Positions 8,527 through 54,112 of a stretch of 64,000 nt of DNA are shown piece by piece. Position numbers and translations under genes: made by a program. Each line of letters begins with the position of its first letter. Positions within the stretch are counted from its first letter, which is position 1. A model generated the notes under the pieces. That model had not been told where the DNA came from. It searched no databases and saw only the letters and a program-made list of their open reading frames with translations. The stretch lies in contig CP065013.1 in NCBI GenBank assembly GCA_016700315.1, positions 1,449 through 65,448 on the forward strand, read 5' to 3'. The DNA comes from Candidatus Saccharimonadota bacterium. GTDB taxonomy: Bacteria; Patescibacteriota; Saccharimonadia; Saccharimonadales; SZUA-47.

Positions 8527-9324
8527 ATGAAGATATACTCTTGGAACGTAAATGGTATCCGTGCAGTCGTACGTAAAGGCGAGTTTCAAAAGTTTATCGA
8601 TGCGCACGATCCAGACATACTTTGTCTACAGGAGACCAAGGCCGAACAAGCCCAGGCCGAAATAGACTTGCCTCAATACCATGAGTTTTGGAATTCTAGC
8701 CGGACCAAAAAGGGCTACAGTGGCACAGCTATCTTCTCCAAAACCGAGCCTACCTCTGTAGTTAATGACATCCCAAGCCAAATTGCTGCCAGTCACAGTC
8801 TAGTCGCCGACAAATACGGCCACAGTAACGATGAGGGCAGGGTAGTTGCTACCGAGTTTCAAGACTTCTGGGTTGTTACTGCCTACACACCTAATTCAAA
8901 GGACGATTTGACTCGAATCCCACTACGGCAACAATGGGACGCAGCCATCGCCGAATACTGTGCAGAGCTACAACTTCAAAAACCAGTTATATATTGTGGT
9001 GATATGAACGTCGCCCACACCGAAGACGATCTAGCAAACCCTAAACCAAACATTGGCAAAAAGGGCTTCACGGCTGAAGAAAGAAGTGGCTTCGACAACT
9101 GGCTTGCTAAGGGTTTTGTCGATACTTTTCGCATTTTTACGAGCGGTAATGGGCACTATACTTGGTGGAGTCACTTCGCTAACTCTCGAGCTCGGAATGT
9201 CGGCTGGAGAATCGACTATTTTCTGGTCAGTCAAGCAATAAAGAGCAAAGTTCATAAAGCCAGCATTCATGCCGATGTAATGGGCAGCGACCATTGTCCG
9301 GTAAGTATTGAAATAGAGCCATGA
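8527..9324 (+). CDS. xth: Exodeoxyribonuclease III (AP endonuclease family)
   Basis: 'MKIYSWNVNGIRA', 'LCLQETK', 'GDMNVAH', 'SDHCPV'. Confidence 0.92.
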   Translation: MKIYSWNVNGIRAVVRKGEFQKFIDAHDPDILCLQETKAEQAQAEIDLPQYHEFWNSSRTKKGYSGTAIFSKTEPTSVVNDIPSQIAASHSLVADKYGHSNDEGRVVATEFQDFWVVTAYTPNSKDDLTRIPLRQQWDAAIAEYCAELQLQKPVIYCGDMNVAHTEDDLANPKPNIGKKGFTAEERSGFDNWLAKGFVDTFRIFTSGNGHYTWWSHFANSRARNVGWRIDYFLVSQAIKSKVHKASIHADVMGSDHCPVSIEIEP

Positions 9325-9371
9325 GTCAAGAGTCAAGAGCCATGAGCCATGAGCCAAGAGTCAAGAGTCAA
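9316..9371. repeat. Heptanucleotide array (8 units, GAGCCAT/GAGTCAA/GAGCCAA words)
   Basis: Period-7 tandem units read directly. The xth stop codon (9322-9324) lies inside the array. Confidence 0.85.
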
Positions 9372-9494
9372 GAAGGTTGGGATTTTGTGGAACTGCCAGG
9401 CCAGCACGACGACTTATGGTCAAACCCAAAACCGTATGTAGATTTGGTAAAAATTACTTTGATTTACAAAATCATTTAAGCGTAGAATAAGTAC

Positions 9495-9794
9495 ATGACT
9501 AATGAAGAAATGATTGAAGACCTTAAGCAATTTATTGCAGCAACTGTTTCGCAGTCTACTAGTGACATTAGAGAGGAAGTCTTTGGACTTGATCAAAAAG
9601 TTACATCATTGGATCAAAAAGTTACATCATTGGACCAAAAAGTTACATCATTGGACCAAAAAGTTACCAGACTTGAAGCAACCACTGAAGAAATCGACAC
9701 CAAGCTTGATACTTTTATGAACGCCGTCGGCGAGAACCAAGAAGAAACCGACAAGCGCCTCACTCACCTCGAAACCAAGGTTTTCGCAAGCTAA
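9495..9794 (+). CDS. Hypothetical coiled-coil protein with 4 x 'LDQKVTS' repeats
   Basis: 99-aa ORF that carries a 21-bp tandem repeat. Confidence 0.5.
   Translation: MTNEEMIEDLKQFIAATVSQSTSDIREEVFGLDQKVTSLDQKVTSLDQKVTSLDQKVTRLEATTEEIDTKLDTFMNAVGENQEETDKRLTHLETKVFAS
9588..9671 (+). repeat. 4 x 21-bp in-frame tandem repeat (TTGGAYCAAAAAGTTACATCA)
   Basis: Four consecutive near-identical 21-mers read directly from the sequence. Confidence 0.9.
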
Positions 9795-9886
9795 TTTTAT
9801 TACTGAAAACCAATGACTGTTTACTGTCTAATCTGTACTGTTTACAATGTACTTATGCTAAAAAATTTGAAAGCGGGTTTTAGTAA

Positions 9887-10618
9887 GTGAGTCGGCCGTT
9901 TGCTGTTTTTGACGTCGACGGAACAATTGCCCGCTCAAGCTTGCTTCAGCTGATCGTTCGTGAGCTTGCTAACAGAGGCCATGTGAGTATAGGTACAGCA
10001 ATCGCAATCGAAAAACTCCTGAATGATTACAGGCAAAGAATTAGCGACGACACATTTGGTGCATTCATGAAAAAAGCCGTCGAGATGATGTTCGCCGACA
10101 TGCCGGCTGGTCTCAGATCGAGCGAATACGACATTGCCGTTCAAACTGTAGTGAGCGAAAGCATACCCAACCGCTACTTGTACACATCAGAGCTCGTTAA
10201 GAGCCTTAAGACCAGAGGCTACTTTGTTATTGCAATCTCTGGCTCAGAGTTTCGGGCCGTCGAAAATTTCGCTCGCGCTTTAGACTTTGATGCTTGGCTC
10301 GGGGCAGTGAAATACAGAGAGCTAGGCGGAATGATTACCAACAATATCGAGGTTGTACCTTACAAAAAAAATGAGATCCTAAGAGGCATGATTCATAAGT
10401 TCGACCTAGACACCGCTAACTCTATCGCTGTTGGGGATACAAGCAGCGATATACCGATGTTTGAAATGGTTAGCCAGCCGATTTGCTTCAATCCCAACCA
10501 AGCCCTTTTCAAAGCAGCACGTGAACGGGGCTGGATGATCGTAATTGAACGAAAAGACATGATCTACGGCCTCACCAAAGACGGCGACCATTACAAAGTG
10601 TCTACAACAAACGTCTAG
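9887..10618 (+). CDS. HAD-superfamily hydrolase, subfamily IB (SerB-like phosphatase)
   Basis: GTG start; motif I 'FDVDGTI', motif IV 'GDTSSDIPMF'. Confidence 0.7.
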   Translation: MSRPFAVFDVDGTIARSSLLQLIVRELANRGHVSIGTAIAIEKLLNDYRQRISDDTFGAFMKKAVEMMFADMPAGLRSSEYDIAVQTVVSESIPNRYLYTSELVKSLKTRGYFVIAISGSEFRAVENFARALDFDAWLGAVKYRELGGMITNNIEVVPYKKNEILRGMIHKFDLDTANSIAVGDTSSDIPMFEMVSQPICFNPNQALFKAARERGWMIVIERKDMIYGLTKDGDHYKVSTTNV

Positions 10619-14116: not shown

Positions 14117-14196
14117 AATTATTTTGCTTTAGTTTTTTAGTTTTCATATAAAGCACTAACTTTATAGTTTAGAGTTTGTACTTTATACTTATACTA

Positions 14197-15504
14197 ATGA
14201 AAACTATACAGCCTTGGTCTGATGATGCCGTAACCCATGCCCAACAGGCTAGACAAGCTATCGCCGACATCGATGAAGAACAACTAGATGAATTAGTGTC
14301 TAAGACAGAGGCTCTACTTGGTCATCAAACAAAAATTATTGAGCCTGAGTCTAAATCTACCGATCAAGCCGATGCCAAAAACGCCGCTCAGTTCGTTAGA
14401 ACAAAGATAAACGCATTGTACGAACATGAGCCAAAGGCCCAAGAAGAACTAGCCGAAGCCACTGCGCCTCACCATCGCGGCTCCAAACACCAACAGTATA
14501 TTGCTTCTTTACAAAAATCCGGCAAATCCGTTGCAGAGATTCAAACGGAGTGGCATAGATACTATCAGTCGTTATCTGATCGCGAGAAGCATCAGGTTTG
14601 GCAAGAGTTTTACGAAGAACAGGCATTGACGAATGCCAAAGATGCTTCAGCCTCCAATTCCTCAAATAGCACTCCGAGAGTAGCCGACCTAAAATTAGCC
14701 AAGCACCACGACCATAAGCAGCTCAAAAGGCCAATTACCGATACCCGGACCGTCAGCGAGCTAAAAGATCGGATAGCTTACCGTGTCTCATCAGGGGGCA
14801 GGCTAAAAGCTCGCCACCATCTTAAGTCCTTAGCTTTTGGCCTAGGCTTTGGCGCACTAACGCTGACAATACTACTGTTCAGTTTTTTCAATGAAAGATT
14901 CATTGCCCCCTTTATTAGCCCAAGTAAGAGCGTTAGCGCCACACCCATCATTGGGACTGGCGAAGCCATTGGGACTGACCCAAAAATTATTATTCCAAAA
15001 ATCAATCTCGAAGTACCGGTAGTTTATAACCTCGGTACCAACCAAGAAAAAGCCATTCAGAATGCCCTTGAAGAGGGAGTCGTCTACTACACAGGCACAG
15101 CCCTCCCAGGACAAAATGGTAACGTCGCGATTGTTGGCCACTCTAGCAATAACATTCTCAATAAAGGCAAGTACAAGTTCGCTTTTGTGCTTTTGAATCG
15201 GCTAGCCGTCGACGATATTTTTTATCTACAAAAAGACGGTGTTCGCTACACTTACAAGATTTACGAGAACAGGGTTGTCGAGGCTAACGATGTCAGCGTT
15301 TTGCAGGCTCAGAGTAAACCCAACACAGCAACCCTGATTACCTGCGATCCACCTGGAACAAGCCTGCGCAGGCGCGTAGTCGTCGGTGAGCAGATTAGTC
15401 CTGACCCAGCTAACAACAAGCAGGCTACGCAGGCCCCCGTTGAAGAACCAAAAGTGCTTCCAAGCAATGCACCAAGCTTGTGGAGCCGGCTATTCGGCAA
15501 CTAA
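14197..15504 (+). CDS. Sortase-family transpeptidase with a long N-terminal extension
   Basis: TM helix 'LAFGLGFGALTLTILLF', catalytic 'VAIVGHS' and 'TLITCDPPG' (TLxTC), and a downstream Arg. I prefer the ATG at 14197 over the TTG at 14176. Confidence 0.8.
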   Translation: MKTIQPWSDDAVTHAQQARQAIADIDEEQLDELVSKTEALLGHQTKIIEPESKSTDQADAKNAAQFVRTKINALYEHEPKAQEELAEATAPHHRGSKHQQYIASLQKSGKSVAEIQTEWHRYYQSLSDREKHQVWQEFYEEQALTNAKDASASNSSNSTPRVADLKLAKHHDHKQLKRPITDTRTVSELKDRIAYRVSSGGRLKARHHLKSLAFGLGFGALTLTILLFSFFNERFIAPFISPSKSVSATPIIGTGEAIGTDPKIIIPKINLEVPVVYNLGTNQEKAIQNALEEGVVYYTGTALPGQNGNVAIVGHSSNNILNKGKYKFAFVLLNRLAVDDIFYLQKDGVRYTYKIYENRVVEANDVSVLQAQSKPNTATLITCDPPGTSLRRRVVVGEQISPDPANNKQATQAPVEEPKVLPSNAPSLWSRLFGN

Positions 15505-15544
15505 TACTGTTTAGTAAAAAAGTTGATGATTGATAGAAGAGCCA

Positions 15545-15968
15545 GGATTAGGTTAGAGGTTATAGGTTAGAGGTTATAGGTTAGAGTGATTAGGGCTACG
15601 GACTAGTAGTTGGTAGTTAGTAGTTGGTAGTTGGTAGTTAGTAGTTGGTAGTTAGTAGTTAGTGCCCCGTACTACGTACCCTGTACTGCGTACTGTTCAA
15701 GTAGAGCCAAGAGCCAAGAGTCATGAGCCAAGAACTAGGGTTCAGGGTCCAGGGACTAGGGACTAGGAGCTAAGGTCTAGCGGATACTACCCCGTACTGC
15801 GTACTGTTCAAGCAGAGCCTAGAGTCAAGAGTCAAGAACTAGGGACTAGTAGCCAGTGTCTAGGGTCTAATTCATACTTTATACATGATACGTGATACTT
15901 GATACTATCTACTGCTTAGAATTTAGAGCCCCCCCATTCGTCGTTCCTCGTCACCGTTCCTCGTCCGC
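15545..15968. repeat. Mosaic heptanucleotide-repeat array (word families GGTTAGA, AGTTGGT, ACTGCGT, GCCAAGA, ACTAGGG, ATACNTG, TTAGAAT, CGTTCCT)
   Basis: Read directly. About 32 consecutive units keep one 7-nt register from 15545 to ~15768. Module order is internally duplicated (15667-15705 vs 15791-15830). Confidence 0.85.
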
Positions 15969-16015
15969 CATTTATTATTTCTCAACTTCAACAAAGCTTT
16001 TCCTGCTATATTAAT

Positions 16016-17497
16016 ATGGTGGACTATCTTGATCCAAAAAAGAAAAAGGCTCATGTTAGACGCCTTTACATTGGCTACGTTTTAATTGCTATTGCAATTG
16101 GTTTAGCAGCCTGGATATTACTTTATATTGGTAACGGTTTTTATTTGAACAAAAACGGTGAAGTTATCCAAAATGGCCTAGTCTATGTCGAGTCTTCACC
16201 ATCAGGCGCAAAGATTTCATTGAACGGTAAGCAACAAAACGACACTACCGATGCCAGACTAGTCATACCCGAATCAACTTACGAACTTATCCTAAGCGCC
16301 GACAAATACCGGCCTTGGCGCCGAACTTTTGATTTGACGGGTGGCAGCGTACGCCGAATAACATACCCCAGAATGTATCCTGTGTCTCTAAAAACCGACG
16401 TAACACAAACTTTTGGCGAAGTACCTGACATGGTGGAGAGTAGCGTCAATAGACGATTAATCATGCTACACATGGCAAGTTCTCCCTTACAAATGCAGAT
16501 TTTTTCAACCGATGAGCCGCTCAATGCGCCAATTATTTTGACGCTAAATAGTGATTTAATTACTAACCCGCAGGCCAAAGCAACGTATCGCGTTTCTGAG
16601 TGGACCGAAAATGCCGAGTTCGTGCTAGTCGAGCGAACTACCTCCGAGATGAGTGAATACTTGCTACTCAAAACCTCGCAGATAAACGAGCAGCGCAATA
16701 TTACACGCGAGTTAAATATCCCTTCGGGTGCTACAGTAACTATGCGCGACCGCAAGGAAAACCAATACGTAGTCTATCTTCCAGCAGACAAAAGCATAAG
16801 GTTCGCTGACCTAAATAATAAAACCCTGATCGACCAGCCGGTGGCTCAAAACGTTCTAGCCTTTAAAGCTTTCGAGTCTGACAAAATACTCTATGCTACC
16901 CCAAGTGAAACAGACAAAACAAAGACAAAAATCAGGCTATTCCAGTCGGGTAAGGTCTATGAAATACGTGAAGTCCTTAGTTCAGAAAAGTACTTTTTAG
17001 ACATGGCAAAACTCGGACGAACACTTGTTATGTTGGCCGGAAGCCAGGCAGAAAAAAAGATCATGGTCTATCGAAACCCGGTCGAGTACCTACAGAGCAA
17101 TCAGAATGTATCTCATCCTGTTGCTACAACTGCCTTAAGAGTCACAAACCCACAGTTCGCCAGTTTTTCTGCCAGTGCCAGCATCGTAATGCTATACGGC
17201 GAGGGCGAGTTCGCGGCCCATGAGTTCGAGGCCGACAGAAGTTACAATTATAAGCTAGACCTAATCTACGACCAGACCAAACCACTTAGATGGATGGACG
17301 GTGCACGACTAAACATAGTCAGTGGAGACTACCTTTATAGCGTCGACTTTGATGGAAGCAACCTTGAAAAACTTATTCCGGGTCGAGCTGCATACGGTGC
17401 GTATTTCGACCGGGACTACACAAGGCTTTATTCCTTCTTAACAAGCAAAGACGGTAGCCTATTTCAGATGACAACCACCCGACTCATCGCAGACTAA
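16016..17497 (+). CDS. PEGA-domain membrane protein
   Basis: N-terminal TM; 'VYVESSPSGAKISLNG...YELILSADKYRPWRRTFDL' is a PEGA-type motif. The remainder is unknown. Confidence 0.55.
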   Translation: MVDYLDPKKKKAHVRRLYIGYVLIAIAIGLAAWILLYIGNGFYLNKNGEVIQNGLVYVESSPSGAKISLNGKQQNDTTDARLVIPESTYELILSADKYRPWRRTFDLTGGSVRRITYPRMYPVSLKTDVTQTFGEVPDMVESSVNRRLIMLHMASSPLQMQIFSTDEPLNAPIILTLNSDLITNPQAKATYRVSEWTENAEFVLVERTTSEMSEYLLLKTSQINEQRNITRELNIPSGATVTMRDRKENQYVVYLPADKSIRFADLNNKTLIDQPVAQNVLAFKAFESDKILYATPSETDKTKTKIRLFQSGKVYEIREVLSSEKYFLDMAKLGRTLVMLAGSQAEKKIMVYRNPVEYLQSNQNVSHPVATTALRVTNPQFASFSASASIVMLYGEGEFAAHEFEADRSYNYKLDLIYDQTKPLRWMDGARLNIVSGDYLYSVDFDGSNLEKLIPGRAAYGAYFDRDYTRLYSFLTSKDGSLFQMTTTRLIAD

Positions 17498-17696
17498 CAT
17501 AAGCTTACTGTCACTTATTTTTGCCATTCTTTTTATCGCGTAGGCATGTCAACATGTTTGCCACGATCGTGGTTTTTATGTCGTACAGTAAAAAGTTGGA
17601 TGTTGGGGCTGGGTAGATTAGTAGGGGGGTTGCAACGGTGGTATAATCGGTGTAAAGTATAAGCATTAACATCAACAGAGGCAGATCGATATAAAA

Positions 17697-18638
17697 ATGA
17701 AAAACTTCATAGAAGTTAATGGTAAGAGATACGACTCCCAAACTGGTAAACTTATCAACCAACCTTCGCGCGTATCTGGGTTTAGTGTTGATGGGATGGC
17801 GCCAAAAAAGCATAACAACCTAGTGAAACCTACAGCGGTTCACAAAAAGCGACCGATCGAAAAATCTCACACCCTTCTACGGCAAGCCGTCAAAAAACCA
17901 ATAACAGCTAAACGAGCAAACGCCGAAAAAACAACTAAAAGCCCTAGAAGCCCTTTGATATCGAAATATGGTAGCGTTTTTACTAAAATTGAGAAGCGCG
18001 TTGAGCCACTAATGTATGTTCAGCCCAAGACTGAAGCTAATATTACCTCGACAGTAAACCACGATAGTCTACCTAGTACCAGCCAAAGCTTAATTGACAA
18101 AGCCTTATCAATATCAACTAGTCACCAAATGAGCGCTCACAAGCCCTTAAAACGGCACAAGATAGCCGGCAAGCTAGGCATCAAACCTAGAACGCTTAGA
18201 GCTGGTAGCCTAATGCTAGCCTTTTTAGTTCTCGGGGTGTTTTTTGCTTATCAAAACGTGCCAAACTTCGCCATGCGTGTAGCAAGCACGCGAGCTGGCT
18301 TTGCCGCACAGATGCCCGGTTATCAACCAAGCGGATTTGCAGTGCTTGGACCGGTTCAGTACAAAAGCGGAGAAGTAACAGTTAGTTTTGGCAGCAAAAC
18401 TGGTGATGGCAGGGAATTCGAGCTAACCCAAAAAACAAGCGACTGGAACAACGACGCACTACTTGCAAACATTGTAGCTAGCAAGCCAAACTACCAAACT
18501 CTACAAGACGGAAATCAAACAATCTACCTCTACGACGGTAGCAATGCCACCTGGGTAAAAAACGGCGTTTGGTATCAGATTGAGGGTGACTCTCGCCTGA
18601 CAAGTGATCAAATATCCCGCCTCGCCAGCAGTTTTTAG
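17697..18638 (+). CDS. Hypothetical single-pass membrane protein
   Basis: 313 aa: basic N-terminal region, TM 'LMLAFLVLGVFFAY', then a C-terminal globular domain. Confidence 0.5.
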   Translation: MKNFIEVNGKRYDSQTGKLINQPSRVSGFSVDGMAPKKHNNLVKPTAVHKKRPIEKSHTLLRQAVKKPITAKRANAEKTTKSPRSPLISKYGSVFTKIEKRVEPLMYVQPKTEANITSTVNHDSLPSTSQSLIDKALSISTSHQMSAHKPLKRHKIAGKLGIKPRTLRAGSLMLAFLVLGVFFAYQNVPNFAMRVASTRAGFAAQMPGYQPSGFAVLGPVQYKSGEVTVSFGSKTGDGREFELTQKTSDWNNDALLANIVASKPNYQTLQDGNQTIYLYDGSNATWVKNGVWYQIEGDSRLTSDQISRLASSF

Positions 18639-20305
18639 GCTATTCTTCTACCTATAGTGTCTTGCGGCATAACTCGCATTACCGAGTGCATGTCGGGGGT
18701 GCGGTTTTTGCCGGTTAGTTTAACCCTAATGATACGAGCAAAGTCTGCCAAATTGCCTTTGAAGTTTTCTGGATTAGCCTTGTAAGCTTTATTGTCTAGC
18801 GCGAAGCCGCTGGTCTCGGCTGCTATCTTTAGCTTTTCGAACCAAGTCGGCTGATCATCGGCTTTAGAGTAACTGGACAGAAAGTTAGCGCAAGCAGAAG
18901 ATACAGTTTGAGTGTCAAAATCCTGCAAAAGTTCGTCTATTCGGCCAGCGAATATTTTGTCATAAACACTGTCTATGAAGTAGCCATATTCCTCAATTAC
19001 ATCGCTCCATTTGGCCACGTCTTTGCGCACCTTTTCGCCGCTACGCTCAATTGCTAGCGCCGGTTTTAGCTCTTCGAAATGATTCAATAGTAAAGTAGGG
19101 ACTTCGGGGTCTAGATTATTGTTTCTGCAGTACTCAACTCCGTATTCACTCAACCACTGCTGTATCTTCTGGTTGAATGTTTCCTGCGGCAGAACACCTA
19201 TCATGTCTCTCGAATAAAAATCCAGTTTTGACTCATCAAACAGCGGGGCACGCGACTTAGCTAGTTTATCCATTGTTACCAACTGGCCGTAGTTGGATAT
19301 CGGCTCTTCTGCATGCTCCTTAAACCAAACGTCGAGATCTGAATTGGCAAGCCCAAAAAGGTAGAGCTTCAGCGCATCAATCGGGTAGCCCAACTCGTAA
19401 AAGAACGCCACATTCGCTTGCGGGTCTTTACGCTTACTAAGCTTGCGTTTATTATTGGTCGCTTTGTCGAGGATAGTGATTGGCGCAATATGCGCATATC
19501 TAAAAGGGGTTATGCCAAGAGCTTGAGCTAGCTCGATATGGAGCGGTAACGAAGGCAGCCACTCATCACCACGGATTACTAAAGTCGTGCCCATCAAAAA
19601 ATCGTCTACAACATGAGCCAAATGATAGGTAGGCAAACGAGAACCATCGGCCTTTATTAGTGGTATATCTAGGTCGTTTTCTGGAAGCTCTAACTGACCT
19701 TTAAGCTCATCAGAAAAAGCAACTCTTTTATCGTGAGAGCCGCTTGATCGAAAACGTAAAACAAAGGGTTTACCCGCATCAAGTGCGGCCTCAATTTCTG
19801 CATCGGACTTATCGCGCCATAGAGCCCACTGACCGTAATAGCCAGGCCGAACTTTGGCGGCCTGCTGAGCTTTGAAGTTCTGCTCGAGCTCTTCAAGCGT
19901 AGCGAAACAAGGATAAGCTCGACCGCTCTTTAGCAAGTCAACCGCGTATGCCAGATATATTTCGACTCGTTCGCTTTGTTTGTAGACCTCCGCCGGAGTT
20001 AGTCCAAAATTATCGAGAGCTGCTCGGATTACTTGGTCACCGTTTTCAATCTCACGTTTTTTATCAGTATCTTCGATTCTAAGATAGAAAACGCCACCGG
20101 TTTGCTTCGCTAATTCATCGCAGAGCAGGGCAGTATAAATAGTGCCGATATGCACAAAGCCAGTTGGGCTTGGTGCTACCCTTGTAACTTCGGCTCCTTC
20201 CGGCAAATGACGCAAAGGTTTTGCGGCTTCGACTTCTGCGCGCGCGGGCACCGTCAAACCCTCGGTAAGCTTGGCCGTAATTTTTTCCACTAACTCCGTT
20301 TTCAT
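18635..20305 (-). CDS. gltX: Glutamate--tRNA ligase
   Basis: Class I signatures 'PSPTGFVHIGT' (HIGH) and 'KLSKRK' (KMSKS); GluRS-like catalytic core. Confidence 0.9.
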   Translation of the reverse strand: MKTELVEKITAKLTEGLTVPARAEVEAAKPLRHLPEGAEVTRVAPSPTGFVHIGTIYTALLCDELAKQTGGVFYLRIEDTDKKREIENGDQVIRAALDNFGLTPAEVYKQSERVEIYLAYAVDLLKSGRAYPCFATLEELEQNFKAQQAAKVRPGYYGQWALWRDKSDAEIEAALDAGKPFVLRFRSSGSHDKRVAFSDELKGQLELPENDLDIPLIKADGSRLPTYHLAHVVDDFLMGTTLVIRGDEWLPSLPLHIELAQALGITPFRYAHIAPITILDKATNNKRKLSKRKDPQANVAFFYELGYPIDALKLYLFGLANSDLDVWFKEHAEEPISNYGQLVTMDKLAKSRAPLFDESKLDFYSRDMIGVLPQETFNQKIQQWLSEYGVEYCRNNNLDPEVPTLLLNHFEELKPALAIERSGEKVRKDVAKWSDVIEEYGYFIDSVYDKIFAGRIDELLQDFDTQTVSSACANFLSSYSKADDQPTWFEKLKIAAETSGFALDNKAYKANPENFKGNLADFARIIRVKLTGKNRTPDMHSVMRVMPQDTIGRRIA

Positions 20306-20317
20306 TAAGCATATTGT

Positions 20318-20702
20318 ACAGGGTAATAAGAGATGCGTACAGGGCGCAGGGGGGATAGTAGTAAGTAGGTAGTAGGTAGTAGTTAGTAGTTGGTAGTTGA
20401 TAGTAAGTGTAAAATTCTAAATCCTAAAATCTAAATTCTAAACAAAGATAGTATCAAGTATTACGTATCATGTATAAAGTATGAATTAGACCCTAGACAC
20501 TGGCTACTAGTCCCTAGCTCTTGGCTCATGGCTCATGACCCTTGACTCTAGGCTCTGCTTGAACAGTACGCAGTACGCGGTACAGGGTACGGGGTGATAC
20601 TTGCTAGTCTAGTCCCTAGTCCCTGGTCCCTAGTCCCTAGCTCTTGGCTCATGGCTCACTGCTCATGCCTCGCGACTCTTGTCTCTTGACTCTCGACTCT
20701 TT
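20318..20702. repeat. Mosaic heptanucleotide-repeat array, largely the reverse complement of the 15.5-kb array
   Basis: 20446-20597 is near-identical to the reverse complement of 15790-15910 (runs of 31 and 55 identical nt checked by eye). The AGTTGGT module keeps the same orientation as at 15.6 kb. Confidence 0.85.
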
Positions 20703-20708
20703 ATACTT

Positions 20709-21926
20709 ATGCTTATGGATAGAAAAGAAAAATTCGAAGAGCCAGCATTTATTGAGCCGGAAAAAATGGCTGAAGCCGAAGATCGCTACAACCAACGTGA
20801 GCCAATCGTGAAAGCCAGCAAACAATCTAAAAACCCCTTTAAAAAGCTCACTAAAATCTGGCGCGGCGCCAGCCGACTGCAAAAAGTCGCTATGATTTTT
20901 GTTTTAGTAGTCATACTTGGCGGTGCGGGTTATGGAGCTTACGCTTTGTTTATAAAAAACGAACCAGCTCAAGAAACAGATCAATCTAACAAACAAGAGG
21001 CAGAACCCGTTGTTGTTGAGCCACCAAAACCTACGACTGAAGCCTCAAGGCTTACTGGGGTACAAATCACCCCCGAGCTAAACAAAAGAGGCATCACAGC
21101 CGTAATGATCGAAAACAGCCCTGATGCGCGTCCTCAGTCTGGACTTAAAGATGCTGGGGTGGTTTTCGAAGCAATAGCCGAGGGTGGAATCACTAGATTC
21201 TTGGCACTTTTTCAAGAAGCTCAGCCAGATTACATCGGGCCAGTTCGTAGCGCCCGTCCTTATTACATTGATTGGTTAAGCGCTTTTGACCCGACTTACG
21301 CCCACGCTGGCGGTAGCCCAGAAGCAATTTCACTAATAGCTCAACTAGGACTAAAAGACATACCTGACGATGGGCTAAACCAGACTTTTTGGCGAATAAA
21401 TAGTCGCTACGCTCCTCATAACCTCTACACATCTAGCGCTAACCTAGACGCCGCTCGCAGCCGAAAAGGCTATGGTGGCAGCAGTTTTACCTCATTAAAA
21501 AGAGGCGAGGAAAAAGCGGTTTCTCCGGTTACTGCAGCAGCAATTGATATAAACCCCTCTAGCCAACTTTACGGAGTTCATTACGATTATGACGCTACAA
21601 CAAATTCATATAAGCGCTTTTTAGCTGGTCAGCCACATGTCGATGAAAAAAGTGGTGCCCAAATCATGCCAAAAGTCGTCATTGCGTGGGTAGTGCCTTA
21701 CTCTATTCACCCCGACCGTGTTCACAGCGTCTACGGCACGATCGGTTCAGGCAAGGCTATAGTATTCCAAAATGGCGTAGCTGCCGAGGTTACTTGGCAT
21801 AAAGCCAGCAGGACTGAGCAGGTTACTTTTACCGACGCTGCTGGCAGCGCTGTTGCCCTCAACCCAGGCCAAACCTGGTTCACGGCCGTCGGAAGCTCAG
21901 ATTTAATCGGCTTTAGAGGGCCTTAG
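20709..21926 (+). CDS. DUF3048-family protein (YerB-like, membrane-anchored)
   Basis: 'ITAVMIENSPDARPQSGLKDAGVVFEAIAEGGITRFLALF' matches the DUF3048 core. The TTG start at 20679 sits in the repeat array, so I prefer ATG 20709 or 20715. Confidence 0.65.
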   Translation: MLMDRKEKFEEPAFIEPEKMAEAEDRYNQREPIVKASKQSKNPFKKLTKIWRGASRLQKVAMIFVLVVILGGAGYGAYALFIKNEPAQETDQSNKQEAEPVVVEPPKPTTEASRLTGVQITPELNKRGITAVMIENSPDARPQSGLKDAGVVFEAIAEGGITRFLALFQEAQPDYIGPVRSARPYYIDWLSAFDPTYAHAGGSPEAISLIAQLGLKDIPDDGLNQTFWRINSRYAPHNLYTSSANLDAARSRKGYGGSSFTSLKRGEEKAVSPVTAAAIDINPSSQLYGVHYDYDATTNSYKRFLAGQPHVDEKSGAQIMPKVVIAWVVPYSIHPDRVHSVYGTIGSGKAIVFQNGVAAEVTWHKASRTEQVTFTDAAGSAVALNPGQTWFTAVGSSDLIGFRGP

Positions 21927-28116: not shown

Positions 28117-28151
28117 GATTAGTGATTGAAGATTAAGGATTAGTGAAGGAA
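28117..28151. repeat. Heptanucleotide array (GATTAGT/GATTGAA/GATTAAG words, 5 units)
   Basis: Read directly. Same word family as the array after topA. Confidence 0.75.
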
Positions 28152-28209
28152 TGCTGGCTTCTGTTTCCGATTTTAGTATTTATTATTTTTGATTTAGAAT
28201 TTTATCAGT

Positions 28210-28893
28210 ATGCGAATTAATAGATGGCTCTCTCAACACACTTCATTGTCGCGCCGAAAGGCAGACGAAGCGTTGCAACAAGGCCGAGTTACAATTAATA
28301 ACAAGAAAGCCAAACTGGGTGACACTGTCGAATATAACGATACTGTTTGCCTTGACGGCGCAGAAGTAGCTAGCCAGCCCATAAAGCGCGAGCTATATAT
28401 GCTAAACAAGCCTGTGGGGTATGTTTGCAGTCGAAGTGGGCAGGGAAGCAAAACAATTTATGATTTACTGCCTAAGCCCCTACACCACCTCAATCCAATT
28501 GGCCGGCTCGACAAAGACAGCTCTGGGCTTTTACTTTTGACTAATGACGGAGAATTACTAAACAAACTGGCTCACCCTAGTAATAATCATGAAAAAGTTT
28601 ACGAAGTTACGCTCCAAGAAATACTGACCCCTGGTCAATTAAACCAGCTTCAAACAGGGGTTAATATAGACGACGCTAGACCTAGCCTACTCAAAGTAAA
28701 GCCTATTCATAACAAGAGTTATGTAGTGATAATTACCGAGGGTAGAAACCGCCAAATTCGTCGCTCTTTTGAAGCAATCGGACATAAAGTAGTTAGGCTG
28801 CATCGAACAAGGCAGGGGCCTTATGAGCTAGCCAACTTACCTTTATCTACCGTCAAACAACTCGGCATTAGCAAGATCAATCTTAGTAGCTAA
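28210..28893 (+). CDS. Pseudouridine synthase, RsuA/RluB family
   Basis: N-terminal S4 domain ('RINRWLSQ...SRRKADE'), catalytic 'GRLDKDSSGLLLLTNDG', 'EGRNRQIRR'. Confidence 0.88.
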   Translation: MRINRWLSQHTSLSRRKADEALQQGRVTINNKKAKLGDTVEYNDTVCLDGAEVASQPIKRELYMLNKPVGYVCSRSGQGSKTIYDLLPKPLHHLNPIGRLDKDSSGLLLLTNDGELLNKLAHPSNNHEKVYEVTLQEILTPGQLNQLQTGVNIDDARPSLLKVKPIHNKSYVVIITEGRNRQIRRSFEAIGHKVVRLHRTRQGPYELANLPLSTVKQLGISKINLSS

Positions 28894-31149: not shown

Positions 31150-31656
31150 ATGAGACTTCCTGAGTACGTTGACACTAACGAAGGATTCCGTCACTTCTAC
31201 GACCCAGAGCAAGTTCGCACCGACTTCAAAACTGCCAGGCAGTACATACCATTTATACCTTTACTTTGGAACTCAGAAGATACTACTTACATACCCCTAG
31301 GAGATCATGAAACACCTCGCAACACACATCTTGGCTTACTAGTCTCCGAAAGCTTAAATCAAACGGGACTAACTGTAATCGAGTTCCTGCCAACTCCGGC
31401 TGAGGCGCCGCTCCCAACCAACATCGCCCTGAAGCAAGATTTCCCGCCAATTTACGGCTTCGTTTTCGAGTATTACAAGAGCCCTGTCGAATTTCACTTC
31501 GGCGGCCCCGTTAGCATTTTGCGCGAGGGGGGGCAAACTAATCCTTTGGGCCGAAGGTTTTGTGCCAGCATCCACCGCCGCCTGGCTGAAGCTTATGACA
31601 TGGCAAAAAGAAAAAATGAGCTCAGGCTAAGCCAAAAAGTCAGCGCCAATTATTGA
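31150..31656 (+). CDS. Hypothetical protein
   Basis: 168-aa ORF that starts 1 nt after the der stop. No domain recognised. Confidence 0.5.
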   Translation: MRLPEYVDTNEGFRHFYDPEQVRTDFKTARQYIPFIPLLWNSEDTTYIPLGDHETPRNTHLGLLVSESLNQTGLTVIEFLPTPAEAPLPTNIALKQDFPPIYGFVFEYYKSPVEFHFGGPVSILREGGQTNPLGRRFCASIHRRLAEAYDMAKRKNELRLSQKVSANY

Positions 31657-31666
31657 CCCTTGAATT

Positions 31667-31880
31667 GGACGAGGGACGAGTTTAAGTTAGTAGTTGGTAG
31701 TTAGTAGTTGGTAGTTGGTAAGTATTACCCCGTGCCGACTAGGGACTAGGGTCCAGGGACTAGGGACTAGGGACTATTTTAGAGCTTAGAGTTTAGAATT
31801 TTCCCCTCGTTCCTCGTTCATCGTTCTAGGCCCGCCTTCGGCGGACTTGCTACTTTCTACTTGCTACTAGATACTATTTA
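31667..31880. repeat. Mosaic heptanucleotide-repeat array kept in one continuous 7-nt register
   Basis: Counted by hand: GGACGAG x2, TAGTAGT/TGGTAGT x5, GACTAGG/GTCCAGG x5, TTAGAGC/TTAGAGT/TTAGAAT, TCGTTCC/TCGTTCA/TCGTTCT, GCTACTT/TCTACTT. All units are in phase from 31667 to at least 31827. The terminal words GGACGAG and TCGTTCC are reverse complements. Confidence 0.88.
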
Positions 31881-31882
31881 TT

Positions 31883-32509
31883 ATGGGTTTATTTGTAAAA
31901 CGCAGTGAAATTGGTAATAATCTACCGCTATACCGAATTGGGGCAGAGAAGACCTTGCTTGTGGCTGGTCTGGGCAATCCAGGAGCAGAGTATAGTCAAA
32001 CACGCCATAATATAGGCTTTGCCGTCGCCGACAAGCTTGTTGAGGCCGAAAAGGGCTCGTGGCATGAGAAAAAGACCCTAAAATGCCATATTGCCGAGCT
32101 CAAGCTGGGCGACAAGCGCGTAATTGTTATCAAACCAACAACTTTTATGAACAATAGCGGCGAGAGCCTCATTGCCGTACAGCAATATTATAAAATTCCT
32201 AGCTCCGATACCTTAGTGCTACACGATGAGTTAGATATCGCCTTTGGGTCAATTCGTTCCAGCTTCGGCGGCTCTAGCGCCGGGCACAACGGACTAAAGT
32301 CGATAATTACACTAATAGGGCTTGACTTCCAAAGGTTACGCATTGGGATTGGGCCAAAGAGCCCAGCAGAAATCGACAGCGCCGACTTCGTGCTAGCAAA
32401 GTTTTCGAAGGAAGAACAGTCAAAGCTAAAGCCCATCATCAACGAATCGCTAACTATGATCAATGACTTTGTTTTCGGATCGCTAAAGCCCGAAACCCGA
32501 AAAATATAA
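31883..32509 (+). CDS. pth: Peptidyl-tRNA hydrolase
   Basis: 'LLVAGLGNPGAEYSQTRHNIGF', 'KPTTFMNNSG', 'HDELD', 'GHNGLKS'. Confidence 0.92.
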   Translation: MGLFVKRSEIGNNLPLYRIGAEKTLLVAGLGNPGAEYSQTRHNIGFAVADKLVEAEKGSWHEKKTLKCHIAELKLGDKRVIVIKPTTFMNNSGESLIAVQQYYKIPSSDTLVLHDELDIAFGSIRSSFGGSSAGHNGLKSIITLIGLDFQRLRIGIGPKSPAEIDSADFVLAKFSKEEQSKLKPIINESLTMINDFVFGSLKPETRKI

Positions 32510-37689: not shown

Positions 37690-39984
37690 ATGCCTAAAAA
37701 TCTAGTTATCGTCGAAAGCCCGGCCAAAGCCAAAACAATCGAGAAATATCTCGGTAGTGACTATGTCGTTAAAAGCAGTATCGGCCATATCCGCAGCCTG
37801 CCCAGCAAAAACGGCTCTATTGACGTGGCCAACAACTTTAAGCCGACTTTTCAGATCGATCCAGACAAAAAGAAGATCATTGCAGAGCTCAAAAAAGCCG
37901 TAGCGAGCGCCAAAAGCGTACTGCTGGCAAGTGATGAAGACCGCGAAGGAGAAGCAATAGCTTGGCATTTAAGTGAGGTGCTAAAACTTGATCCAGCCAC
38001 TACAAAACGCATAGTCTTTCATGAGATAACCAAGGACGCACTAGACGGCGCCATCTCTAACCCTAGAACTATAGATATGCCACTAGTTGAGGCACAGCAG
38101 GCTAGACAAGCCCTAGACTATCTAGTCGGCTTCGAACTAAGTCCAGTTTTGTGGCGCAAAGTCGCACCCAAGCTTAGCGCCGGCCGAGTTCAGTCGGTTG
38201 CAGTCAGACTGATTGTTGATCGAGAAAGAGAAATCGAGTCTCACTTGCCGGAAAGCTCATTCAAGATTAGCGCCAACTTTGAATCTGTTAATGGCGACGA
38301 GCTGAAGGCCGAAGCAAGTGGTAAACTAGCAACTGCCGAAGAAGTGAAACAGCTATTTAACATCTATAAAGACAGCAAATTTAGCGTCGTGGACGTCGCT
38401 AAAAAGCCCGGCAGCCGTAATCCGAGCGCCCCATTTATCACAAGCTCATTGCAGCAAGAAGCGGCGGCTAGACTTGGTTATAGCCCGCGTACCACCATGC
38501 AACTTGCACAGAGACTGTACGAGGCCGGCCATATCACTTACATGCGCACCGATTCTCTAAATCTTAGCAAGCAGTTTTTGGGTGCTGCGACTAGCTATAT
38601 CAAAAAAGAATTCGGCGATAATTATCATCAATTCCGCACTTTCAAAACGAAGAGTTCGGGTGCCCAAGAAGCCCACGAAGCCATAAGACCAACAGACCCA
38701 AGCCGCAAAACTGCCGGTGCCGATGAGCAGCAAAACAAACTGTACAATCTGATTTGGCGTCGAACTTTGGCCTCACAAATGGCGCCCGCTGTCGTTGAAA
38801 AAACAGAGGTAGTTGTCGAATCATCGGGTTCAAAGCCAGTAAGACTAGTAGCCAAGGGTGAGGTACTAACATTTGATGGTTTTATTAGGGTCTATGGAAG
38901 ATCTGGTGACGACACGCTGCTGCCAAACCTAAAAACTGGCGACAAATTAATACTAAACTCTGCCGAAAGTATCGAGGCTCTAAGTCGCGGGCCAGCTCGT
39001 TATACCGAAGCTACCCTCGTTAAAGCTCTGGAAGAGCGGGGGATTGGTCGTCCTAGCACCTACGCCAGCATTATTAGCACCATTCAAAGTCGAGAATATG
39101 TCGAGCGCACTGATGTTGAGGGCGTACAACGTGAAATACGTCATATCACCTTAGCTCAAGGCACGATCAGCGACCGATCAGAGACGTTTGAATATGGTAA
39201 AGATAGCAACAAATTAGTCCCAACAGACAGGGGCCAGGTCGTAACCGATTTTCTGGTAAAACATTTTGGCGAAGTAGTAGACTACGATTTTACCAAAAGC
39301 ATTGAACAGGAACTAGATGACGTTGCTGACAGCACAAAAACACGCCTAGAGGTACTAAACGACTTCTATGGGCCGTTTAGCCGATTAGTAAAGGCAAGTG
39401 ACGACATTAGCCGTTCTGAAGCCGCTCAAGCCCGCCTAGTCGGTCAAGATCCGAAGAGCAAGAAGCCGATTTACGCCCGATTCGGTCGGTTTGGCCCAAT
39501 GCTTCAACTAGGCGAACAAGGCGATGAGTCTGATAAGCCGCAGTTTGCCTCCCTGCCACGTGGTGAAAAAATCGAGACTATTTCACTAGAAAAGGCACTT
39601 AAAGCATTTGAACTACCTAGACTAGTGGGGCACACCGCTTCAGGTGAAGAAATAAAGGCCAACATCGGCCGTTTTGGCCCCTACATACAGATAGGCAAGC
39701 TATTCGTAAGCATCAAGCCTCATGATCCGCACGACATTACACTAGAAGAATCTTTGGAGCTATACAAAGCCAAGCTTAAGGCAGAGAAAGAGAAGTTTAT
39801 TGCAAAGTTTGGCGATATCCAGGTGCTAAAAGGTCGTTACGGCCCATATGTAACAGACGGCAAGAAGAATGCAACCATTCCAAAAACACAGGATCCAACA
39901 AAATTAACAGAGGCGGAGGCTCGTAAAATTCTTGACGAAGCACCCGCCAAAAAAGGGCGCTTTACTCGCCGCAAGAAGAAATAG
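37690..39984 (+). CDS. topA: DNA topoisomerase I
   Basis: Toprim 'LVIVESPAKAKTIEKYLG', 'ASDEDREGEAIAWH', active-site region 'ITYMRTDS', basic C-terminal tail. Confidence 0.95.
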   Translation: MPKNLVIVESPAKAKTIEKYLGSDYVVKSSIGHIRSLPSKNGSIDVANNFKPTFQIDPDKKKIIAELKKAVASAKSVLLASDEDREGEAIAWHLSEVLKLDPATTKRIVFHEITKDALDGAISNPRTIDMPLVEAQQARQALDYLVGFELSPVLWRKVAPKLSAGRVQSVAVRLIVDREREIESHLPESSFKISANFESVNGDELKAEASGKLATAEEVKQLFNIYKDSKFSVVDVAKKPGSRNPSAPFITSSLQQEAAARLGYSPRTTMQLAQRLYEAGHITYMRTDSLNLSKQFLGAATSYIKKEFGDNYHQFRTFKTKSSGAQEAHEAIRPTDPSRKTAGADEQQNKLYNLIWRRTLASQMAPAVVEKTEVVVESSGSKPVRLVAKGEVLTFDGFIRVYGRSGDDTLLPNLKTGDKLILNSAESIEALSRGPARYTEATLVKALEERGIGRPSTYASIISTIQSREYVERTDVEGVQREIRHITLAQGTISDRSETFEYGKDSNKLVPTDRGQVVTDFLVKHFGEVVDYDFTKSIEQELDDVADSTKTRLEVLNDFYGPFSRLVKASDDISRSEAAQARLVGQDPKSKKPIYARFGRFGPMLQLGEQGDESDKPQFASLPRGEKIETISLEKALKAFELPRLVGHTASGEEIKANIGRFGPYIQIGKLFVSIKPHDPHDITLEESLELYKAKLKAEKEKFIAKFGDIQVLKGRYGPYVTDGKKNATIPKTQDPTKLTEAEARKILDEAPAKKGRFTRRKKK

Positions 39985-39992
39985 CGAAAAAC

Positions 39993-40077
39993 GATTAAAG
40001 ATTAAGGATTAAAGAAGATAATTCACGAAGTTCCTTGATCCCATTCCTTAATCATTAATCCTTAATCACTAATCTTC
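39993..40077 (+). terminator. Long imperfect palindrome built from GATTAAG-family heptads; probable topA terminator
   Basis: The left arm GATTAAAGATTAAGGATTAAAGAAG (39993-40017) pairs at about 80% with the right arm CCTTAATCATTAATCCTTAATCACTAATC (40046-40074). It begins 9 nt after the topA stop. Confidence 0.5.
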
Positions 40078-52921: not shown

Positions 52922-52959
52922 ACCTTAAGCTAATTTTAGCATAAGCTAAAATAAAAACT

Positions 52960-52987
52960 CTAAGTCCTAAATTTTAAATCCTAAAAA
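52960..52987. repeat. Short heptanucleotide array (CTAAGTC/CTAAATT/TTAAATC/CTAAAAA)
   Basis: Four in-phase units. Same word family as 20411-20442. Confidence 0.6.
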
Positions 52988-53030
52988 AAATCAAAATTAA
53001 TGCTAAGCTTTTCTGTTCTTCTTACGCAAA

Positions 53031-54112
53031 CATCAGACCAAACCGACAGTTACGACGATCACCGAAGCTCTAACCTCTCACCTCGGGACGCACGCCCAGG
53101 TCGCCACCACGAAGGCCGACACCGCTGCGGCTCAAGTACACCCGACCGCGGCCAGGATCCCAGTCGACGGCGAGCCCGTCCGCACCATTGTTTATGGTAC
53201 CTTCAGCCCATGACCAGTTGTAGGTGATGCCTATCTTGCCATCAATAGGATCTTGTTTGTTGAATTGTCTCATAGCATGGATAGTAAGTAGCGTTTCAGC
53301 CTTAGGGTTGGTGATTGTATATATGTCTGGGTCAGTGTTGCTATTGTCTGGACCAGTTGGCAATTTGTCTAGAATGTCACGAAGGTTTTCAGGGATAGAT
53401 CTGTCAGCTGCGGTGCCATTGTGGGCAACATTGGGGACTGGGACTTTACTACTGACTGGTACAACACTGACTTGCCACTGTGGGGCATTAGGATTAGTGT
53501 CTATGACACTAATCCATTGTGTAGCAACTTCATTGTTTATCCATAATCCATCACCATCTGCTAGGTTATGGAGCTTGTGCGCAGAGTCGGGATGATTGGT
53601 GTCTTGCCAAGCCCTTAGTCCTGAGAATAAGGCTCGCCAGCTTCCTGGTGTGTAGTTACCATCTGCGAGCTTCTCCCCAAGTGGCCGATTGATGGGAGTA
53701 AACACCAATTGTGAAGGTATATTCAGTTCTTCATAGGCTTTAGTAGCCTCAAGAAGTCGTTGCCAGTTGGTGTTAGCAAACTCTGGGCTGTCTAGATTAG
53801 GTATATCACTGAAGACGTGGCCTGTTTCTTCTATCATCCTACCCATTTGATGATGGGTTTGTTTTACTAATTCTGCAAAAGCTCTACCTTCAGGAGATGA
53901 TGACAGCGAGTCAAGACTGCCGTTGTTAGTAGAGTCAGAACCCATACGCTCAACAGGAGCAAGTGAAGGAAGTCCAAGATTACCAAGAGCAATTAGTGTT
54001 GCCTGAGTAGCTTCTACTCCTTGACCTACAGAGCCTCGAGCTTCTGGGCTTGCCATAGCACCAAGATTAACTAGTGCTTCGACTTGTTCAGGGGTGAGGG
54101 GTTTAGGCATGA
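53031..54112. repeat. Left arm of the ~1.08-kb inverted repeat (partner 57629-58710)
   Basis: The encoded proteins are identical for 294 aa. The arms share the last 2 codons plus stop of the upstream gene (GCC TAA) and about 40 nt beyond the stop codon. Confidence 0.9.
53070..54110 (-). CDS. Unknown-function protein, copy A, with a DGR-type variable C-terminus
   Basis: The start ATG overlaps the vWA gene stop (ATGCCTAA). The GC-rich C-terminus is 'WSWAEGT..NGADGLAV.W.P..GRV.L....VGLRG..LGVRPEVRG'. I prefer the start at 54110 (MPKPL). Confidence 0.75.
   Translation of the reverse strand: MPKPLTPEQVEALVNLGAMASPEARGSVGQGVEATQATLIALGNLGLPSLAPVERMGSDSTNNGSLDSLSSSPEGRAFAELVKQTHHQMGRMIEETGHVFSDIPNLDSPEFANTNWQRLLEATKAYEELNIPSQLVFTPINRPLGEKLADGNYTPGSWRALFSGLRAWQDTNHPDSAHKLHNLADGDGLWINNEVATQWISVIDTNPNAPQWQVSVVPVSSKVPVPNVAHNGTAADRSIPENLRDILDKLPTGPDNSNTDPDIYTITNPKAETLLTIHAMRQFNKQDPIDGKIGITYNWSWAEGTINNGADGLAVDWDPGRGRVYLSRSGVGLRGGDLGVRPEVRG

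Follow-up and report, generated by a model that had tools for sequence, protein, structure and literature searches.

Mosaic heptanucleotide arrays in the intergenic spacers of a Saccharimonadales bacterium: a known repeat class in a new host

What are the blocks of 7-nt words that fill the spacer in front of pth in a Saccharimonadales genome, and what, if anything, keeps them in order? The array lies at 31667-31876 of a 64,000-nt stretch of contig CP065013.1 (GCA_016700315.1; positions 1,449-65,448, forward strand), hereafter the window, and an initial annotation, made from the letters alone, had described it as a succession of different heptamer words concatenated in one unbroken 7-nt register. 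We assign a probability of roughly 70% to the reading that this array and its counterparts elsewhere in the window are lineage-specific, hierarchical mosaics of heptanucleotide simple sequence repeats (SSRs), belonging to the class known as short tandemly repeated repetitive (STRR) sequences or “tandem heptamers”, and that they have expanded, in a single Saccharimonadales species, into spacers upstream of genes. Bacteria of this group have streamlined, ultrasmall, reduced genomes, and their cultivated members are epibionts. The relatives of the Pth protein encoded here all come from Candidatus Saccharibacteria, Saccharimonadales or Patescibacteria, and because they reach at most 55-62% identity, the window represents an uncultured Saccharimonadales lineage without a close sequenced sister.

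First, is the period of 7 itself real? In a sliding lag scan of the window, with a threshold of at least 17 of 21 matches per sliding window, lag 7 yielded 211 strongly periodic windows and lags 5, 6, 8, 9, 10 and 11 yielded none, while Tandem Repeats Finder (TRF) returned 60 rows, of which 26 have a period of 7 and another 12, covering these arrays too, have a period of 14 or 21. The signal is thus both real and specific. Head-to-tail 7-nt units, the hallmark of tandem heptanucleotide SSRs of the STRR type, occur well above chance; the arrays total 861 nt, or 1.35% of the window, and are dispersed in STRR-like fashion over eight spacers within 64 kb, with one further block inside an open reading frame (ORF). 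The heptamer blocks in front of pth read letter for letter as the initial annotation had transcribed them and are laid out as follows.

31667-31876, plus strand: the whole mosaic array, flanked by a hypothetical gene (31150-31656) and by pth (31883-32509)
31667-31680, plus strand: block A, GGACGAG, two units
31688-31722, plus strand: block B, TAGTAGT/TGGTAGT, five units
31720-31736, plus strand: linker AAGTATTACCCCGTGCC
31737-31778, plus strand: block C, GACTAGG/GTCCAGG, six units, G-quadruplex-capable at 31742-31765
31779-31799, plus strand: block D, TTAGAGC/TTAGAAT, three units
31807-31827, plus strand: block E, TCGTTCC, three units
31832-31844: small hairpin, CCGCC-TTC-GGCGG
31849-31876, plus strand: block F, GCTACTT/GATACTA, four GCTACTT-like units

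The array ends 6 nt 5' of the pth start codon at 31883. Three familiar categories can be set aside, as had been proposed from the outset: the units are 7 nt long and abut directly, whereas the repeats of clustered regularly interspaced short palindromic repeat (CRISPR) arrays measure about 23-50 nt and are separated by unique spacers of comparable length; the units are not palindromes of the repetitive extragenic palindrome or bacterial interspersed mosaic element (REP/BIME) kind, hairpins being confined to 39993-40074 and the 5-bp stem at 31832-44; and the arrays, made of blocks of several heptamer words, are not a single microsatellite.

Second, how far does the same vocabulary extend? Every other site that had been named as a recurrence is indeed a period-7 array, and the full inventory outside the pth spacer comprises the following.

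15545-15968, plus strand: array 1, the largest, flanked by a gene of the sortase family (14176-15504) and one with a PEGA domain (16016-17497); its first part runs I (AGGTTAG), B and two super-units of H (CCCCGTA/CTGCGTA), CTGTTCAAG, G (AGAGCCA/AGAGTCA), AGAAC and C (GGGACTA), and its last part F-like ATACTTG, D, a C-run and E/CTCGTCC
20318-20702, minus strand: array 2, paralogous to array 1 in inverted orientation; it occupies the divergent spacer that separates gltX (18635-20305, minus strand) from a DUF3048 gene (about 20716-21926, plus strand)
9315-9375, plus strand: single-family array of about 8 units, AGAGCCA/AGAGTCA/TGAGCCA, starting at the stop codon of xth (8527-9324)
9815-9850, plus strand: decayed period-7 stretch, ACTGTTT-like, in the spacer 9795-9886
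28117-28151, plus strand: short array of GATTAGT/GATTGAA/GATTAAG, upstream of a pseudouridine synthase gene (28210-28893)
39993-40074: hairpin of two complementary heptamer arrays, GATTAAA/GATTAAG (three units) and TTAATCA/TTAATCC (four units)
52957-52990, minus strand: short, degenerate array of words like CTAAATC (D-type, reverse-complemented), with a minus-strand gene on each side
58968-59004, minus strand: AGAGTCA/AGAGCCA block inside an NYN-domain coding sequence (58662-59261, minus strand)

Flanking the arrays are der, pth, gltX, topA and xth, together with a hypothetical gene and genes of the sortase family. The proposal that the six word families of the pth array recur at these sites in shuffled order and in both orientations holds for the large arrays and fails for several small ones. 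Array 1 carries B, C, D, F and the reverse complement of A on the plus strand, and in array 2 most words, including those of H, D, G and C, are reverse-complemented, with the B block remaining on the plus strand and so inverted relative to the rest. At 9316-9371 and 58973-59000, by contrast, the word is AGAGCCA/AGAGTCA, absent from the window's pth array although it does co-occur with other families in the two big arrays, and the sites at 28117-28151 and 39993-40077 carry the further family GATTAAG/GATTAGT.

About nine word families make up the mosaics, and several of them are related. E (TCGTTCC) matches a rotation of the reverse complement of A (GGACGAG) at 6 of 7 positions, the exact reverse complement CTCGTCC being present in array 1; F (GCTACTA) matches the reverse complement of B (TAGTAGT) equally well (6/7); and I (AGGTTAG, equivalent by rotation to TTAGAGG), D (TTAGAGC) and G (AGAGCCA) stand 1-2 positions apart once rotated. 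Above the level of words lies a second level of order, the super-unit, in which heptamer blocks are joined by fixed linkers in the sequence B-AAGTATTA-H(CCCCGTA/CTGCGTA)-CTGTTCAAG-G(AGAGCCA)-AGAAC-C(GGGACTA). Such super-units, about 80-110 nt long, have been copied both inside loci and from one locus to another, in either orientation: array 1 has two copies of an 82-nt version with a spacing of 111 nt, further copies are found in two of the strain alleles described below (L212 and L085), and copies are 80-98% identical. Arrays 1 and 2 share an inverted repeat of 89 nt with 94% complementarity (15822-15910 / 20446-20534). The three large arrays have a common gene-proximal end, a D block followed by a C-run; F-like units precede the D block in arrays 1 and 2, and the F block of the pth array comes after E, beside the start codon. 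The motif ATTTATTAT ends three arrays just 5' of an initiation codon; the array at 28117-28151 is followed by ATTTATTAT and TTTAGAATTT, both common to other sites. Across the window ATTTATTAT occurs 5 times against 1.1 expected, including 15970-15978, 28178-28186 and 31876-31884, possibly serving this lineage as a promoter or leader element.

Third, does a common 7-nt register run through the blocks? Any two tandem blocks can be brought into phase by choosing the rotation of their words, so the claim calls for a test that is free of rotation. When block limits in the pth array are drawn by lag-7 identity alone, the blocks measure 14, 31, 40, 19, 22 and 27 nt, which are not whole numbers of units, and the gaps between them measure 9, 16, 2, 7 and 23 nt; the common phase is therefore a product of the rotation chosen for each word, and the unbroken register attributed to this array is an artefact of that choice. 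Elsewhere the register is broken outright. With the rotations of the initial annotation held fixed, G falls at phases 2 and 1 and H at phases 6 and 5 in array 1; in array 2, G falls at 5 and 2 and H at 3 and 1; and in allele L085 of the pth spacer, B falls at 5 and 0 and C at 1, 4 and 0. Super-unit spacings of 111, 189, 334, 157, 170 and 80 nt leave remainders of 6, 0, 5, 3, 2 and 3 on division by 7, which places one copy in six in the 7-nt frame, the chance level. A global 7-nt register is thus rejected by three tests, namely rotation-free block limits, family phases across arrays and alleles, and super-unit spacings. Constant phase offsets are found only across conserved linkers (H to G, +3; G to C, +2), and these reflect homology rather than register.

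Fourth, how do the arrays differ among close relatives of the sequenced strain? An index of the assembly collection places the exact Pth protein in 40 blocks, and the spacer was compared among the ten places listed. Four contigs that span it fully (L081, L083, L087 and L089, from different runs) have the same spacer length of 226 nt with one single-nucleotide polymorphism, and L090, which covers 224 nt, also matches. Over 12.9 kb, L081 is 99.8% identical to the window and has no indel in the pth array or the 39993 hairpin; at this very short evolutionary distance, 0.2% divergence, the arrays are stable. Since the pth array recurs in at least five independent metagenome assemblies, the arrays are real and not an assembly artefact. 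Exact-protein look-ups for more DNA of the same species found no record for two proteins and, for the others, only short contigs inside the range of the window.

At 1-3% flank divergence the arrays do vary. The pth spacer of L088 is 254 nt long, with a single 28-nt gain in block B, and that of L085 reaches 410 nt through additional modules of H, G, C and B, with the direct repeat AAGTATTACCCCGT at their borders. The PEGA-upstream spacer exists in alleles of 246, 422, 511 and 638 nt; these lie between flanks of 98-99% identity, and the 313-aa protein encoded nearby has the same sequence throughout. Spacer ends next to genes are conserved, whereas the super-units in the middle are present or absent among strains. 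Indels between alleles fall into two kinds: those within blocks measure 7, 14, 28 and 42 nt, the whole-unit copy-number variation between strains that characterizes STRR-type repeats, and those at the level of modules measure 34, 43, 73, 104, 138 and 263 nt and are not multiples of 7. A process that works in 7-nt quanta, as had been suggested, does act in the interior of blocks, but not on the modules, which ignore the frame. Short-read contigs repeatedly begin or end inside arrays, as would be expected were the modules dispersed genome-wide. One allele, L212 (JGI 3300045395, contig Ga0490022_004698), differs from the window (15505-20715) in gene neighbourhood: the segment of PEGA gene, 313-aa protein gene and gltX, which in the window is bounded by the two inverted arrays, has other neighbours on both sides: upstream lies tig-clpP, downstream an unrelated sequence that resembles a terminator, and the breaks fall within arrays. 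This is either an array-mediated rearrangement or a chimeric short-read join.

Fifth, are the arrays peculiar to this lineage? The two closest Pth relatives, at 60% identity, have 50-nt pth-upstream spacers without period-7 arrays, and the other Saccharibacteria compared, 495 kb from 31 loci, hold 100 nt of arrays, or 0.02%, versus 1.35% here. The composite syntax of B, H, G, D and E words with their linkers was met at the other fetched loci only as single-word coincidences. The same short words do recur in unrelated taxa. AGGTTAG arrays are found in Ruminococcus loci and TGGTAGT arrays in another Saccharimonadales metagenome-assembled genome (MAG), and a metagenome scan for at least three tandem copies of GGGACTA matched at least 120 contigs, the 80 loci examined spanning 38-74% guanine plus cytosine. 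The contigs bearing this word include, by their record names, some from human-gut metagenomes; GGGACTA and related GGGNNNN heptamers often stand in mixed blocks and inverted pairs (loci L091-L170, for example L120 at 626-699, L154, L165 at 1930-2049 and L146 at 1581-1721). Within Patescibacteria, a Berkelbacteria MAG (L033) carries heptamer arrays at 9117-9190, 9563-9595 and 9960-9994, and others are present in L032 and L035, the words across the three being GTGAAAG with inverted arms and AATTTCC. Since each of these loci has arrays of its own, period-7 arrays recur sporadically across the radiation with lineage-specific words.

How might such mosaics have arisen? Tandem blocks gain and lose whole units (7, 14, 28 or 42 nt between strains), as they would by replication slippage, and the linker-joined super-units are duplicated, deleted and copied within arrays and between loci, in both orientations and regardless of the 7-nt frame. 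Changes of the latter sort would come about through unequal or ectopic homologous recombination, together with microhomology-mediated deletion between shared blocks and linkers, and the word order common to several loci would then derive from common descent of copied segments instead of a global register. The effect on the cell would most likely be small and incidental, a matter of spacer length, of hairpins here and there and of a single G-quadruplex-capable block in each large array, and the arrays would be tolerated rather than designed.

The placement of the arrays relative to genes bears on this view. Among spacers of at least 60 nt, the eight with arrays comprise seven co-directional and one divergent, and none of the four convergent spacers has one. 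In all five unambiguous arrays the words are oriented with the genes (p about 0.06), and the sense strand is richer in G than in C in six of the eight arrays; because the orientation statistics cover 5-6 arrays within the window, they are no more than suggestive. The direction that the arrays share with neighbouring genes and their absence from convergent spacers make it probable that they are transcribed, as 5' leaders or as intercistronic RNA, and upstream position, co-orientation and the sense-strand G excess together suggest transcribed leaders. The intragenic block at 58968-59004 lies in a genuine NYN-domain ORF (PF01936, E = 2.7e-14).

Several considerations weigh against the interpretation of the arrays as tolerated SSR mosaics. 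A streamlined genome would be expected to purge useless DNA, yet its longest spacers are arrays. The gene-directed word orientation and the excess of G over C hint at a strand-specific constraint that pure slippage does not explain, the conserved gene-proximal ends leave room for function, and the unit length of 7 is left without explanation. Moreover, the long alleles L085, L088, L211, L212 and L213 are mostly represented by one short-read contig each, such that repeat collapse or chimeric joins could distort their lengths or create the apparent synteny break of L212.

What, then, of the alternatives? The one that survives best, though we consider it unlikely, is that the arrays are contingency or rheostat elements: the number of copies and the set of modules in the leader would tune how the downstream gene is transcribed or translated. 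Their situation upstream of gene starts, co-directional with genes and absent from convergent spacers, is what such a role would predict, as is the variation of alleles in unit and module number, and the most variable array lies 5' of the gene for a PEGA-domain protein that is likely surface-located and 3' of a sortase gene. The arrays precede housekeeping genes too, however, namely pth, gltX and the pseudouridine synthase gene, and since there is no indel over two arrays at 0.2% divergence, switching is not fast on that scale. The sequence signals are likewise divided. The reverse complement of the G word places TTGACT, a -35-like hexamer, every 7 bp, and a promoter scan matched TTGACT-16 nt-TATGCT at 20686-20713; nevertheless, promoter and terminator consensus scans gave nothing consistent, including no consistent promoter-like sites in the pth array or array 1. 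A rheostat role has reportedly been proposed for heptamer repeats of Nostoc. Precedent in the literature counts in its favor (10.1101/2022.06.06.494920), while a study of the related class found no regulatory role (Rehm 2015, PMC4692102).

A further possibility, improbable in our estimation, is that nucleic-acid structures are under selection, either RNA stems between complementary blocks, serving stability or termination, or G-quadruplexes in the GGGACTA block; both have been documented among related repeats, as STRR hairpins and heptamer G-quadruplexes (PMC4692102, PMC2670836). The initial annotation had pointed to complementary words that could form long-range stems, and such words, of the TCGTTCC/GGACGAG type, do exist. 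Folded as sense RNA, the pth spacer reaches -79.8 kcal/mol (z = -2.65, versus z = -0.05 for the antisense), mainly by pairing of B with F through G-U pairs, and the clean hairpin at 39993-40074, whose complementary heptamer arms begin 8 nt past the topA stop codon (39982-39984), scores z = -3.55 and -3.60. Yet the specific A-E stem is missing from the minimum-free-energy fold, array 1 has an E-type block without an A block, and on neither strand do arrays 1 and 2 fold better than shuffled sequence (z = +1.24, +2.43, +1.28 and +0.85). Since these are the two largest arrays, long-range stems are not a general property, and RNA structure common to the arrays is rejected; the stems that do appear are predicted from folding. 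As to quadruplexes, the window holds only three (G3N1-7)x4 motifs, at 15738-15761 and 31742-31765 on the plus strand and at 20614-20637 on the minus strand, against 0.42 in shuffles, all three in C blocks of the large arrays and on the strand of canonical word orientation. The G-quadruplex option of ViennaRNA predicts a quadruplex for the isolated C block, and for the isolated block only. The motif is not conserved, since array 1 falls short of four consecutive G-tracts in alleles L211 and L213. A search of the window against Rfam at the gathering threshold returned two tRNAs and nothing else.

It is also conceivable, if doubtful, that the arrays form a modular system of cis-elements. Cold-shock and other OB-fold proteins have a footprint of roughly 7 nt. 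Heptamer words spaced at 7 nt might be read by single-strand or duplex nucleic-acid-binding proteins of this or another kind, recombination of modules might quickly rewire leaders and gene order, and the period might reflect a protein footprint instead of a bias of slippage.

Less probable still is a small non-autonomous mobile element, resembling a miniature inverted-repeat transposable element (MITE) or a small dispersed repeat (SDR), that inserts into spacers and then decays to repeats. The same composite segments do occupy several loci in both orientations at up to 94% identity, and presence/absence polymorphism is accompanied by short direct repeats at the junctions (TAGGG and AAGTATTACCCCGT), but these direct repeats are the array's own repeated motifs, as recombination would give. 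Terminal inverted repeats, constant ends and constant length are all wanting; the two ends of an array are not inverted versions of one another, the junctions between alleles lie at various places within blocks, and no transposase was found among 18 scanned ORFs of the window or in the Pfam listings of genes on the fetched contigs. An assembly or chimera artefact, which had been named as a possible undoing of the pattern and to which contigs breaking inside arrays and the altered gene neighbours of L212 might seem to point, has a negligible chance and is refuted for the existence of the arrays by the recurrence of the 226-nt pth array in the window and four full-span contigs, each from a different sequencing run, and in independent Logan and ENA assemblies, and by related alleles in ENA, JGI and NCBI assemblies, so that only individual long alleles are still in question.

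Some further repeats in the window deserve mention. The heptamer block inside the NYN-domain gene encodes a charged loop, ESQEPRVKSQE, and is an instance of the repeat family having invaded a gene in frame; an independent contig (L225) is 99.98% identical across it. A 21-nt unit, CAAAAAGTTACATCATTGGAC, is repeated 3.5 times with 98% identity at 9594-9667, inside a small coiled-coil-like ORF (9495-9794); as 3 x 7 nt, it amounts to a 7-residue heptad repeat at the protein level. An 889-nt perfect inverted repeat (53222-54110 / 57631-58519), extended by 198 nt at 90% complementarity (53023-53220 / 58515-58712), has its arms in two paralogous ORFs without a Pfam match (53070-54134, minus strand; 57619-58665, plus strand) and flanks a 3.5-kb segment with two divergent genes. 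An invertible segment, a very recent inverted duplication and an assembly artefact are all possible readings of it.

Why should these mosaics matter? They offer a compact, well-delimited case of what is reported as the commonest intergenic periodic repeat of prokaryotes, in a species that belongs to a reduced-genome group and whose nearest relatives found are free of arrays, with a natural allele series at single loci (246, 422, 511 and 638 nt) and a two-level dynamic of unit slippage inside blocks and module recombination between them. The features most worth keeping are the hierarchical organization and the contrast with array-free relatives in a streamlined group. The system could serve as a natural experiment in repeat invasion, distinguishing what is tolerated from what is used. 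In practical terms, the arrays break short-read assemblies of such genomes and may create chimeric joins.

Finally, how do the arrays compare with heptamer repeats described in other organisms? Literature searches found no paper tying such repeats to Saccharibacteria or the candidate phyla radiation. Heptamer tandem repeats of the STRR type are said to have been described in cyanobacteria by Mazel et al. in 1990. Hairpins and a description of the class in cyanobacteria are given in PMC2670836. The arrays of the window resemble them in their tandem 7-nt units, their many dispersed intergenic loci, the placement of several heptamers side by side, the hairpins formed by inverted arrays, their strain variability and a function that is unknown for the class. 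They differ in host, which is here a member of Saccharimonadales (Patescibacteria) and not a heterocystous cyanobacterium, in words, as CCCCAGT, TTGGTCA and CAACAGT of STRR1-3 are absent from the TRF consensus units, and in the joining of blocks by linkers into super-units that repeat at a higher order. A cyanobacterial origin of the window is rejected on account of the Saccharimonadales and Patescibacteria relatives of its Pth and the lack of STRR1-3 words.

In Haemophilus influenzae, 7-bp repeats upstream of hmw1A reportedly tune expression in a graded way and switch rapidly within the host. The likeness lies in 7-nt tandem repeats of variable copy number in a leader region; there, however, a single word is involved, with a graded effect on expression and rapid within-host switching, whereas the differences seen here are between strains.

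Closer in word structure are the G-quadruplex-forming repeats GGGNATC of Xanthomonas and GGGGA(C/T)T of Nostoc, which lie between aligned ORFs, vary extensively in length between close relatives and have no identified function or regulatory role (Rehm 2015, PMC4692102). Block C, with at least four units of GGGACTA and one G3 tract per 7 nt, is of the same make, and the arrays here are likewise intergenic, mostly between aligned ORFs, and variable in length and sequence among close relatives. The word is different, though (GGGACTA/GGGTCCA), C is one of about nine families, the four G-tracts are not present in all alleles, and the quadruplex is here a predicted one. TAACTGA direct repeats and mixed heptamer assemblages have been described in Beggiatoaceae, Microcystis and Bacteroidetes (MacGregor 2015, PMC4679880); common to both cases are larger assemblages of different heptamers in some spacers, close relatives without repeats, and contigs that end inside, whereas TAACTGA is absent here and the arrays are longer (200-640 nt), with a recurring block order. 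In broader surveys, tandem heptamers are the most abundant intergenic periodic repeat in prokaryotes, the reason for the period of 7 being unknown (Mori 2018, PMC6344855), and Mrazek 2007, as summarized in PMC4679880, has heptamers as the dominant long SSR in many genomes and proposes slippage related to the polymerase footprint. The general phenomenon and the puzzle over the period are the same here, but those surveys scored single-period repeats and described neither hierarchical mosaics nor this phylum. The pattern therefore matches a repeat class already described, an outcome that the initial annotation had named as one that would refute it: it belongs with the intergenic tandem heptamer repeats (STRR; PMC4692102, PMC4679880, PMC6344855), a class known from cyanobacteria, Xanthomonas and many other bacteria, in a new host.

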